Below, piece after piece: positions 17,565-19,766 of a stretch of 64,000 bases of DNA. The notes beneath the pieces are model-generated. The model did no database searches, had not been told where the DNA came from, and was given only the letters and a program-made list of their open reading frames with translations. Position 1 is the first letter of the stretch, and each line of letters begins with the position of its first letter. The position numbers were made by a program, and so were the translations under genes. This stretch comes from Candidatus Heimdallarchaeota archaeon (GTDB lineage: Archaea > Asgardarchaeota > Heimdallarchaeia > JABLTI01): positions 32,001-96,000 of the forward strand of contig JABCTZ010000006.1 in assembly GCA_018238155.1 (NCBI GenBank), given 5' to 3'.

Positions 17565-19766
17565 TTGAGCGACTATATACATACTATCAGCTTCAAAGTT
17601 CTCATAGACTCTGAAGTTGTAGACTTTACGTTTAGAGTTCCACGAGGAACACTGCTCATCCAAGTATTGGATGAACTCGAAACAACATTGAAAATTCAGC
17701 CAAGAGTAATTGCTACAGTAAATCATGATGGGGAAATAATGATTGTTGAAAACCATTATTCCACCATTGAGTATCTTATACAAAAATTTGGGACTGATTT
17801 TTATGCTGGTGGATCAAGTGTTGTGACATTCAATCATGGAGAATACATTGTTGATTTAGAAGTTCCAGAAGCAATTCCATTTGCTTCATCCTTTAGAACA
17901 GCGAGCAAAAGCTTCTCAATATTACCAAGAGATGTCTCTATTGAGAGACAAGATGGTCAAGTAATGGACTATGAAATATTTCGTTTGCCCACTGCTTTTG
18001 TGCTAAATTCTTGGGGAAATTTTTATCGAATAGTTGATCGCGAATTGGGTGATCCTTTAATAGATCCACCAAAAGTGGACGGAGAAGTATCCTCTCTAGA
18101 TTCAAATCAAACTTATGAAGAAAGAACAGAATCAGAACAAACTTCAATGGTCTACCCACCGAAATTTGATGGTTCGGAATCAACAGATACTGTTTCAGAG
18201 GTATCGGAATTAGATATTTTGACTGAACATTTTGTTGAATCCTCCTTACATGAAGATGATCAAGAAGAATCCGATTCTGAACATGTTGAGAGAACTTCTC
18301 CTTGGCAAAAAACGGAAGACGAGGAGCCCTCTTCAAGTTCAATTGAGCTTGAAGAAGAACCAACAATTGAATCATTGATGGATGAAATCCTCCTTGAAAG
18401 TAAAACAGATCAAAACGATGATGACGTCGACGGAGAATTTCTAACTCAAGCAATTGAAGAACCATTGGCAGATTCTGTTGTTACAGATGTTTCACAGTTT
18501 GATGAGGAATCTGATGACATTCCCCTAAGTGAAGTGATTGATTTTGGCGATGAAATAGATGCTTTAGAGGATGAAACAATTATTGATGAGACGGAAGAAG
18601 AAGATGCTTCAGAAATCCCTGCTCAAGATATTTATGAAGTATCAGTCCTCGAGGAAAATGGTTCAGAAGAACAAATTTTTGATGAATTTGTTGATGAAAC
18701 AGAAGAAATAGCTGCTGATCTTCCAATTGAAGAAACTTCTTCAACATTTGAGGAAATGATTACAACTTCTTTTACAGAAGAGAAAGAAGAACCTGAAGAG
18801 GAAGAAGAATCTGAGGAAGAAACATTTGTTTCTCAACCATTTGATGACGAGCAATTTATTGAATCCATCAAAGATCATTATGTTGCAGAAGATTCACGCG
18901 ATGAAATACTAACATCCACAGCTGAAACAGAAATAATTGAAGATGGTGTTGAAGAAGAATTAGAGAATGAACCTCAAGCATTAGATGATTTGACGGGAGA
19001 TTTGGTTGTTGAATCTGAAGATATTTTCGAATCTGTTGTCAAAGACATCGATGAAGCAATTGAACAATCTGAAATTACTCCTATTCTGAAGGATTTACCT
19101 TTAGATCAAAGACTGGAGATTAGAAAACAAGAGCTAGTTTCTCTTGAAAAAACTTTGAGTGAAGAAGAGAAACTAAAAGTGAAGATACAACAAAGAATGA
19201 TTTCCATTGATTATTACGAAAAAATGAATCCACGAAAAGTATATTCTATATCCGTGAAAATTTCACCTACTCTTTCAACTAAACAAAATGAACATAATAT
19301 TAAACTGAAGATTGTACCAATATTTCCAGGTTGCTATGTAACACCTCACCAAGAGATTGTTGAAATAAATGGTGAAAGTGATATTGATGTAGAATTTACT
19401 GTAACACCTCTAATTAGCCAAGGAACGGTCAACGGAAAACTTGGCATTTGGTATAAAGGAAGGAATATTCTTAATATTAATACTACTTCAAAAATAAGGA
19501 ATTATTCGGGTTGCATTGTTAGTAGTATATTGGCATTTCTATTTGGAATAATGCCTTTTCTATTTTTAATATTTAATTTTAATTTTAACAATGCTTTAGC
19601 AACAGGATTAAATAACATCTTTTCAACTACATTGACAGCTAATCTGTTTGTGATTTTTGAAATAATTTTGCTAGTAATTTTTCTTGGTCTAATGGTTGGG
19701 TTCATTTTCGTAGGGAAACCAACCAAACGAAAAATAAAACGCAAATTTTATCCTGTAGCTCCTTGA
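17565..19766 (+). CDS. Membrane-anchored protein: tandem Ufm1-like beta-grasp domains, long acidic linker, beta domain, 2 TM
   Basis: Two N-terminal repeats of about 80 aa, E/D-rich low-complexity middle, two C-terminal hydrophobic helices and basic tail. Confidence 0.6.
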   Translation: MSDYIHTISFKVLIDSEVVDFTFRVPRGTLLIQVLDELETTLKIQPRVIATVNHDGEIMIVENHYSTIEYLIQKFGTDFYAGGSSVVTFNHGEYIVDLEVPEAIPFASSFRTASKSFSILPRDVSIERQDGQVMDYEIFRLPTAFVLNSWGNFYRIVDRELGDPLIDPPKVDGEVSSLDSNQTYEERTESEQTSMVYPPKFDGSESTDTVSEVSELDILTEHFVESSLHEDDQEESDSEHVERTSPWQKTEDEEPSSSSIELEEEPTIESLMDEILLESKTDQNDDDVDGEFLTQAIEEPLADSVVTDVSQFDEESDDIPLSEVIDFGDEIDALEDETIIDETEEEDASEIPAQDIYEVSVLEENGSEEQIFDEFVDETEEIAADLPIEETSSTFEEMITTSFTEEKEEPEEEEESEEETFVSQPFDDEQFIESIKDHYVAEDSRDEILTSTAETEIIEDGVEEELENEPQALDDLTGDLVVESEDIFESVVKDIDEAIEQSEITPILKDLPLDQRLEIRKQELVSLEKTLSEEEKLKVKIQQRMISIDYYEKMNPRKVYSISVKISPTLSTKQNEHNIKLKIVPIFPGCYVTPHQEIVEINGESDIDVEFTVTPLISQGTVNGKLGIWYKGRNILNINTTSKIRNYSGCIVSSILAFLFGIMPFLFLIFNFNFNNALATGLNNIFSTTLTANLFVIFEIILLVIFLGLMVGFIFVGKPTKRKIKRKFYPVAP

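Follow-up and report, generated by a model that had tools for sequence, protein, structure and literature searches.

Architecture and conservation

The window analyzed here is a 64,000-nucleotide stretch of the genome of a Candidatus Heimdallarchaeota archaeon (assembly GCA_018238155.1, contig JABCTZ010000006.1, positions 32,001 to 96,000). One of its genes encodes a 733-amino-acid (aa) membrane protein, P0001, which begins with two consecutive domains related to the ubiquitin-fold modifier UFM1. An earlier note had singled out positions 17565 to 18050 as tandem Ufm1-like domains; these positions correspond exactly to residues 1 to 162, ending at the Gly of an ELG motif, and all of the motifs that it quoted were found. 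The tandem Ufm1-like membrane protein is confirmed as a real feature. Its layout, as seen in the full-length family alignment, is a tandem Ufm1-like head followed by an acidic linker, a coil and beta domain, a transmembrane (TM) hairpin and a basic tail (Table 1).

More than 40 homologues were found, with lengths of 642 to 917 aa and 62 to 92% identity across the first 175 residues, and the MSGYIHT... or MS(G/D)YIHT start that they share agrees with the TTG start of the gene. Residues 1 to 165 form a strongly conserved block. Identity of the head to that in another genus is 64%, versus 46 to 49% for the products of the neighboring GT22, E1 (activating enzyme) and giant-protein genes, and head conservation equals or exceeds that of the housekeeping neighbors. 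In nearly all cases, the homologues are labeled as Heimdallarchaeota or Asgard “hypothetical protein,” and none has a precomputed Pfam domain. A phmmer search with residues 1 to 175 against 1.8 billion representatives retrieved the same family only, together with repetitive false positives (P0048 and P0049). Two family members, P0009 and P0044, carry the NCBI labels “candidate division Zixibacteria bacterium” and “Candidatus Thorarchaeota archaeon” and probably derive from mis-binned contigs. Look-alikes from the protein atlas, with scores of ≤0.84 for the head and ≤0.89 for the tail, were set aside as leads only.

The anatomy claimed downstream of the head, a long E/D-rich linker, a beta domain and two TM segments, is borne out by the linker composition and by the hydropathy scan, which gives exactly two hydrophobic peaks. 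Residues 166 to 505 contain 36.8% D+E and 2.9% K+R, and across the family the linker ranges from 242 to 516 aa with 28 to 40% D+E. No signal-like segment is present at the N terminus. The two TM segments and the basic C-terminal tail would, by the positive-inside rule, place both termini and the Ufm1-like head in the cytoplasm, and the claim of a membrane-tethered Ufm1-like protein with an acidic linker is supported in the form of an anchored protein that probably faces the cytoplasm.

Linker, beta domain and TM hairpin are kept in all full-length members. Searches of Pfam, NCBIfam and PDB sequences with the C-terminal module returned no relative. A profile of this anchor module matches open reading frames (ORFs) of 320 to 630 aa in 49 of 83 Heimdallarchaeia genomes, and these proteins combine unrelated heads and disordered acidic or Pro-rich linkers with the beta domain, TM hairpin and basic tail seen in P0001. 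The anchor is a reusable cassette, as would be expected of a general “head on a tether” arrangement. The genome itself encodes a 440-aa paralogue that has the same beta domain, hairpin and tail and an unrelated head of ~110 aa without a Pfam match. Complex prediction for domain 1 and domain 2 with the conserved linker motifs gave a score of 0.00, which speaks neither for nor against binding.

Table 1. Location of the Ufm1-like gene, its parts and other genes mentioned in the text. Positions without a prefix are those of the window; those with an L prefix are on other loci. Alignment A4 (84 rows) cross-aligns domain 2, domain 1 and stand-alone ubiquitin-like proteins (Ubls); res, residues; AF2, AlphaFold2.
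Feature	Position	Strand	Basis or description
Whole gene P0001 (733 aa)	17565..19766	+	Single intact ORF, TTG start
Ufm1-like domain 1 (res 1-84)	17565..17816	+	Profile homology to stand-alone Asgard Ubls, alignment A4
Ufm1-like domain 2 (res 83-162)	17811..18050	+	AF2, Foldseek, VIA-align, sub-threshold Pfam Ufm1, hhalign
Gly162-Asp163, invariant; candidate processing site or hinge	18048..18053	+	Alignment A4
Acidic, poorly conserved linker (res 163-505, ~340 aa)	18051..19079	+	Composition, family alignment
Conserved linker motifs M(V/I)YPP(K/Q) (res 195-200) and SE(I/V)DxxT(D/E)H(F/Y)VE (res ~213-227)	18147..18245	+	
Juxtamembrane module: helical stretch (res ~506-545) and beta-rich domain (res ~546-645) with FPGCxVTP and FxVTP motifs	19080..19499	+	
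Two TM segments (res ~649-669 and ~688-716) with a ~20-aa loop between	19509..19712	+	Hydropathy scan
Basic, probably cytoplasmic tail, Lys/Arg-rich, with conserved RKFYP motif	19713..19763	+	Positive-inside rule
MoeB/ThiF/UbaA-type E1-like gene	20146..20892	-	NCBIfam; two genes from the Ufm1-like gene
Ost5 (oligosaccharyltransferase subunit 5) ORF, 72 aa, two TM segments	19868-20086	+	Pfam, 31.8 bits (threshold, 27.4 bits)
GT22 (Alg9/PIG-B-like) mannosyltransferase	15704-17464	-	153 bits
Archaeal 16S rRNA gene, complete	38404-39894	+	Rfam RF01959, 1391 bits
Anchor paralogue, 440 aa (same genome, contig C24)	L108:3440-4759	-	
JAMM/MPN+ protease, 293 aa (contig C41)	L109:3322-4203	+	Intact HxH...S..D, C-terminal TM tail anchor
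Tandem winged-helix protein, 278 aa (contig C7)	L089:1273-2109	+	UFL1/DDRGK1-like, basic N terminus
Lokiarchaeial Ubl-E2 fusions, 270-272 aa	L052:1483-2298; L053:958-1767; L056:1480-2289	+; -; +	Ubl ending ...RGIVG
Tethered proteins of Lokiarchaeial genus g43, 611-612 aa	L111:1800-3635; L112:397-2229	+; -	Strong Ufm1-like domain(s), independent E about 1e-18

Relationship of the head to UFM1 and to Asgard modifiers

The whole protein has no Pfam match at an E value of ≤1. When the N-terminal regions of 22 members were scanned singly, Ufm1 (PF03671) was the sole family matched by 22 of 22. The match of P0001, residues 98 to 132 onto Ufm1 positions 19 to 53, scores 14.4 bits (E = 0.037; 13 bits in a search of the six-frame genome) and does not reach the curated gathering threshold of 27 bits; the best family member (E = 3.3e-5) is also below it. 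A search of PDB sequences with the family profile gave 13 best matches that are all Ufm1, at an E value of about 0.3.

Structural comparison places domain 2 with UFM1. With alignment A4, AF2 models residues 79 to 170 as a beta-grasp fold (pLDDT, 90.8; pTM, 0.82). The first 11 Foldseek matches of this model in the PDB are UFM1, mostly with a root mean square deviation (rmsd) of 1.4 to 1.6 Å over 77 to 81 columns and all with 18 to 20% identity. The 11 best VIA-align matches are also UFM1 entries (Z, 10.1 to 12.0), and the next Ubls (TBK1-ULD, SUMO and UBX) follow at Z scores of 9.3 to 9.7 and 5 to 9% identity. The leading structural matches listed for domain 2 do not include MoaD, ThiS or SAMP. 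Eukaryotic UFM1 (PF03671; PDB entries 5xda, 5ia7 and 5hkh) and domain 2 have in common the beta-grasp fold with an extra short helix (rmsd, 1.2 to 2.2 Å; 72 to 80 residues; identity, 20 to 22%), the pattern VPE..PF...A..F / ..DG.. / G...RI and a Gly where mature UFM1 ends. Unlike eukaryotic UFM1, the archaeal protein has two fused copies within a 733-aa membrane protein, an internal Gly and a sub-threshold Pfam score.

Domain 1 has a secondary-structure order compatible with the beta-grasp fold, and its relationship is traced by profiles. In hhalign comparisons with 28 distinct stand-alone Asgard Ubls, both domain 1 (93.9%; E = 1.5e-7; 75 columns) and domain 2 (90.2%; E = 1.5e-6; 66 columns) match. 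Direct comparison of the two domains is not significant (E = 0.039; 20 columns), although in register, and their kinship therefore rests on the stand-alone family as an intermediate. In addition, the profile of A1, the tandem-only family alignment (22 rows), matches ORFs of ~87 aa from a second family of Heimdallarchaeia, f3, to which Ca. Heimdallarchaeum belongs, at an E value of about 1e-4 per genome, and the match covers profile positions 8 to 90, i.e., domain 1. The earlier assignment to a Ufm1-like branch, rather than to MoaD/ThiS/SAMP, is supported by structure matches for domain 2 and by profile homology for domain 1; the proposed check with AlphaFold and Foldseek was positive for domain 2, and domain 1 is placed by profile only. 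A quick tree unites domain 1 with the modifiers of Heimdallarchaeaceae (approximate likelihood ratio test, 94), and domain 2 sits, weakly placed, on a very long stem. In both domain clades the stems are long and the internal branches short, a pattern that would fit fast change at or after the fusion, followed by strong constraint.

Ufm1 homologues have been reported in nine Asgard clades (Koestlbacher et al., Nat Microbiol 2026; PMC12962969). The accessible portion of that text mentions hits that are “not full-length” or have “multiple hit regions” and contains no description of a fused, TM-anchored architecture. An earlier survey (PMC10183829) regarded UFM1 and UFC1, which it did not find in Asgard archaea, as eukaryote-only; it did find UFL1 and DDRGK1 there, traced them back to these archaea and suggested for both a UFM1-independent role. 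With a mixed profile, Ubls of the stand-alone kind were detected in 61 of 400 Asgard genomes, the majority as ORFs of 86 to 100 aa that end in RG(V/I)VG, some with 1 to 5 extra residues after it. They recur in a four-gene cluster that comprises a UBA5-like E1 (with the hallmarks RYxRLK...FGY and CxASLPxT, by eye), a JAMM/MPN+ fusion protein (PF14464 plus PF01398), the Ubl and a UFC1-like conjugating enzyme (E2; Pfam UFC1, 26.1 bits versus a threshold of 25). The UFC1-like E2 profile has matches in 39 of the 400 genomes, and the E2 gene adjoins the Ubl gene in every case in which both were found. Fusions of Ubl and E2 in some Lokiarchaeia (Table 1) would need cleavage to free the modifier. Both domains of P0001 are homologous to the stand-alone modifiers, which are 86 to 94 aa long and lie beside their own E1, E2 and protease. 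Unlike these modifiers, P0001 is fused, anchored and 733 aa long, has GT22, Ost5 and a MoeB-type E1 as neighbors and is found only in genomes without that operon.

The two domains differ at the position where the modifiers end. The Gly that ends the stand-alone modifiers is matched in A4 by G162 of domain 2, an invariant residue (ELG, with the invariant D163 next), whereas the same column in domain 1 is an invariant Thr (T88, followed by F89), so that only domain 2 retains a possible processing site. The view of the earlier note that each domain ends in Gly, like a processing site, holds for domain 2 only; in domain 1, the homologous site is T88 and not the AGG. The former tail of domain 1 (residues 83 to 90, ..SSVVTF) is modeled as the first strand of domain 2, and because of T88 and this shared strand, the two domains cannot be released separately as polyubiquitin repeats are. 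Polyubiquitin, ubiquitin-ribosomal-protein fusions and Lokiarchaeial Ubl-E2 fusions likewise hold a Ubl inside a longer polypeptide with Gly at the junction, but every repeat of those precursors ends in a cleavable Gly. The three residues preceding G162 vary among members (ELG, EFG, EQG, ESG, TKG and one deletion), in contrast to the near-fixed RG(V/I)VG tail of the stand-alone modifiers, and such variability is not what should be expected of an enzyme-recognized tail. G162 is followed by 571 residues.

Conjugation enzymes and gene neighborhood

The family sample comprises 12 genomes that are 64 to 92% complete. None of the 12 has a match to the UFC1-like E2 profile, and a Pfam UFC1 search of the window's genome gave only an 18.5-bit match with internal stops. 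A UBA5 orthologue is also absent from the 12 genomes: the best matches to the UBA5 profile are a 333-aa ubiquitin-type E1 (132 to 153 bits, versus 415 to 470 for true orthologues) and the E1 encoded near the Ufm1-like gene (105 to 128 bits), and hidden Markov model searches of the six-frame genome agree with this result. UfSP was found neither in the genome nor in the family, and the operon-type JAMM fusion is matched in the genome at 36 bits, short of a clear orthologue. No stand-alone Ubl was found in the 12 genomes, each of which has exactly two Ufm1-like matches, the domains of the tethered protein. The link to UFMylation chemistry drawn in the earlier note finds no support in this enzyme complement, with a UFC1-like E2 in 0 of 12 genomes and no UBA5 orthologue. 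In a lineage without the enzymes that attach Ufm1, the fold of the tag seems to be re-used as a fixed membrane-bound module.

Two further proteins encoded in the genome resemble parts of ubiquitin-fold pathways. One is a tail-anchored JAMM/MPN+ protease (Table 1); considered as a dedicated processing enzyme, it was rejected, as it shows no specific link and has homologues in 79 of 83 Heimdallarchaeia genomes, i.e., class-wide. The other is a tandem winged-helix protein that occurs here in a genome without UBA5 and UFC1. It matches PCI above threshold (26.7 bits), E3_UFM1_ligase/UFL1 at 22.0 bits (cutoff, 23.2) and DDRGK at 17.8 bits, and this UFL1/DDRGK-like protein is a candidate reader of the Ufm1-like head.

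The E1-like enzyme encoded two genes from the Ufm1-like gene had been proposed as its activator, but it is of the MoeB/ThiF/UbaA rather than the UBA5 type. In the six loci of the window's family (f1) that were read, window included, its crossover loop lacks Cys (LPVSSITGIHP here) and its second CxxC is degenerate. The Ca. Heimdallarchaeum orthologue (38% identical) retains TSCELGILG and CSAC and adjoins no Ubl. Two ThiS/MoaD-like genes are located elsewhere in the genome, and their products could be substrates of this E1. With the loop Cys gone and orthologues elsewhere without an adjacent Ubl, a role of the enzyme as cognate activator is not supported, and its functional link to the Ufm1-like gene is doubtful.

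The gene order giant protein, beta-CASP, GT22, Ufm1-like gene, Ost5, E1, HD and PAC2 is kept in nine of nine family loci, but this synteny says little about function, because genomes so closely related are collinear across all of the 20 kb. Pfam searches with five segments of the giant protein (2308 aa), a PDB sequence search and a genome search with PF09743 detected no UFL1 signal in it. The Ost5 ORF lies directly downstream of the Ufm1-like gene and adjoins it in all nine loci, and the GT22 gene is divergent from it across a 100-bp spacer. Farther downstream in the window, the complete 16S rRNA gene accounts for a G+C peak at 38 to 40 kb.

Possible roles of the tethered head

The proposal that agrees best with the evidence, which we rate as an even call, is that P0001 is a permanently membrane-tethered, nonconjugated di-Ufm1 head that serves as a cytoplasmic docking module at the membrane. 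Under this proposal, two Ufm1-like beta-grasp domains would descend from an Asgard stand-alone modifier, fused head to tail, and would have been joined to a pre-existing Heimdallarchaeial anchor cassette of disordered linker, juxtamembrane beta domain and TM hairpin. The hairpin and basic tail would put the N-terminal part in the cytoplasm, and the polyanionic tether of ~340 residues would display the head and could reach tens of nanometers off the membrane. The head would remain uncleaved and act as a noncovalent docking surface that brings a partner recognizing the Ufm1 fold to the membrane, by analogy with eukaryotic membrane-anchored ubiquitin-fold (MUB) and other Ubl-domain proteins. The effect would be that of a genetically fixed stand-in for Ufm1 tagging of a membrane protein.

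MUB proteins of plants and animals carry a Ubl that is fixed at the cytoplasmic face of the membrane, unconjugated, and that recruits partners noncovalently by binding E2s. They have a single Ubl domain and a C-terminal prenylation anchor (CaaX box), whereas in P0001 a TM hairpin anchors a pair of Ufm1-type domains by way of an acidic tether of 340 aa; its C terminus, ...KRKFYPVAP after the two TM segments, has no CaaX prenylation signal, and the likeness is functional only. DDRGK1 (UFBP1), the anchor of the UFM1 ligase at the endoplasmic reticulum (ER) membrane, is also membrane anchored with a long charged region and brings the UFM1 system to the membrane. It has winged-helix/PCI domains and an N-terminal TM segment and binds UFM1, whereas here the Ufm1 fold itself is anchored. 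Proteins of the Lokiarchaeial genus g43 (Table 1) are analogous in that they combine Ufm1-like domain(s) with a linker that is charged or Pro rich, a region rich in beta structure and a pair of TM segments at the C terminus, but they differ in an additional N-terminal region and in a Ubl that ends ...HFAGGGPPPP. Homology of their C-terminal part to the Heimdallarchaeial anchor was not detectable (E = 0.5), and the g43 architecture is therefore probably an independent fusion. The g43 form occurs both in genome G148 (100% complete, without a UBA5 or UFC1 orthologue) and in genome G146, beside a canonical system, which suggests that tethered forms are a separate class and not merely precursors.

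The docking proposal draws on the Ufm1-like nature of the head; on the lack of a UFC1-like E2, a UBA5 orthologue and a stand-alone Ubl in the family genomes; on the Thr that replaces the terminal Gly in domain 1 and the welding of this domain to domain 2; on the variable residues ahead of G162; on the anchor kept by all full-length members and carrying other heads elsewhere; on the g43 proteins; and on the strong conservation of the head. Several points weigh against a docking role. The docking partner is only hypothetical, drawn by analogy; the absence of E2 and E1 rests on incomplete metagenome-assembled genomes, albeit twelve; and the AF2 model of residues 1 to 185 with A1, which includes domain 1, reached a pLDDT of only 42 and was not used for fold claims. 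In addition, G162 and D163 are invariant and G162 lies exactly at the mature C terminus of the modifier, which a purely structural domain need not retain. Related Ubls do occur as fusion precursors (the Lokiarchaeial Ubl-E2 proteins and the extensions of 1 to 5 residues after the terminal Gly), and an E1-like gene with adenylation competence lies two genes away in every family member, where the f1-specific loss of its Cys could be a co-adaptation.

The last of these observations carry the main alternative, that the protein is a precursor, in which a protease would cut after G162 and free a di-Ufm1-like modifier with a C-terminal Gly from a membrane-parked pro-form, and in which the Cys-less MoeB/UbaA-type E1 would perhaps adenylate the modifier for E2-independent attachment, as in archaeal SAMPylation. 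It is further favored by the tail RIVDRELG, which resembles the Ufm1 tail RIIPRDRVG (as given in the earlier note), and by JAMM/MPN+ proteases in the genome, one of which is tail anchored; the need to cut the Ubl-E2 fusions and extended relatives and the intact adenylation motifs of the syntenic E1 point the same way. Nevertheless, the residues right before G162 vary, unlike enzyme-recognized Ubl tails, and the E1 lacks both the loop Cys and the second CxxC, has orthologues in families without the tethered protein and has ThiS/MoaD-like proteins as alternative substrates. Its synteny weighs little when the whole 20 kb is conserved among close kin, the operon-type JAMM fusion is without a clear orthologue, and the tail-anchored JAMM is class-wide. 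A conserved extension of 570 residues with its own paralogous family would also be an odd leaving group. On balance, the precursor explanation is somewhat unlikely. A head without any Ufm1-specific function that works as a generic adaptor, like the UBL or UBX domains of Rad23, ubiquilin or UBX proteins, and links the membrane protein, or else its clients, with the proteasome or Cdc48, or that serves the anchor family as an internal signal for degradation or solubility, has only a small chance. UBX, TBK1-ULD and SUMO do follow the Ufm1 chains among the structural matches, a PAC2 proteasome-assembly-chaperone gene belongs to the conserved neighborhood and the anchor cassette accepts other heads, but Ufm1 stands ~2 Z units and ~10 identity points above the other Ubls, the sequence signal is Ufm1 specific, the very strong conservation of both domains speaks for a specific partner surface and the adjacency of PAC2 is part of the general collinearity among close kin. 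Chance resemblance or a noncoding artifact, for which only the Pfam threshold that is never reached could be cited, is already refuted by the size and head identity of the family, by a confident fold model with Ufm1 as the top match and by the hhalign results for both domains.

A more specific form of the docking proposal is improbable as it stands: the head as a hard-wired, enzyme-free counterpart of UFMylation at the membrane, which in lineages without UBA5 and UFC1 would constantly present a Ufm1 surface to UFL1/DDRGK1-like winged-helix proteins, such as the one encoded here, or to membrane ribosomes. If true, Asgard archaea would have read Ufm1 noncovalently at membranes independently of the conjugation cascade and possibly earlier than it.

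UFM1 was long regarded as eukaryote-only, and the report of homologues in Asgard archaea is recent (PMC12962969). Ufm1-like proteins in Asgard archaea are thus already known; new, as far as we found in the literature, is a duplicated, fused and TM-anchored Ufm1 form in lineages without the cascade. It represents a third state: a membrane-fixed fusion of two Ufm1 folds in genomes that encode a UFL1/DDRGK-like protein but no E1 or E2 of the pathway. If the head is cleaved, the protein would be an unusual membrane-parked Ubl precursor, and either way, some 40 “hypothetical proteins” would gain an annotation. If the head is a docking surface, it would offer a simple, expressible system for finding readers of the Ufm1 fold among the archaea most closely related to eukaryotes and would show whether the membrane localization of Ufm1 signaling predates the ER.

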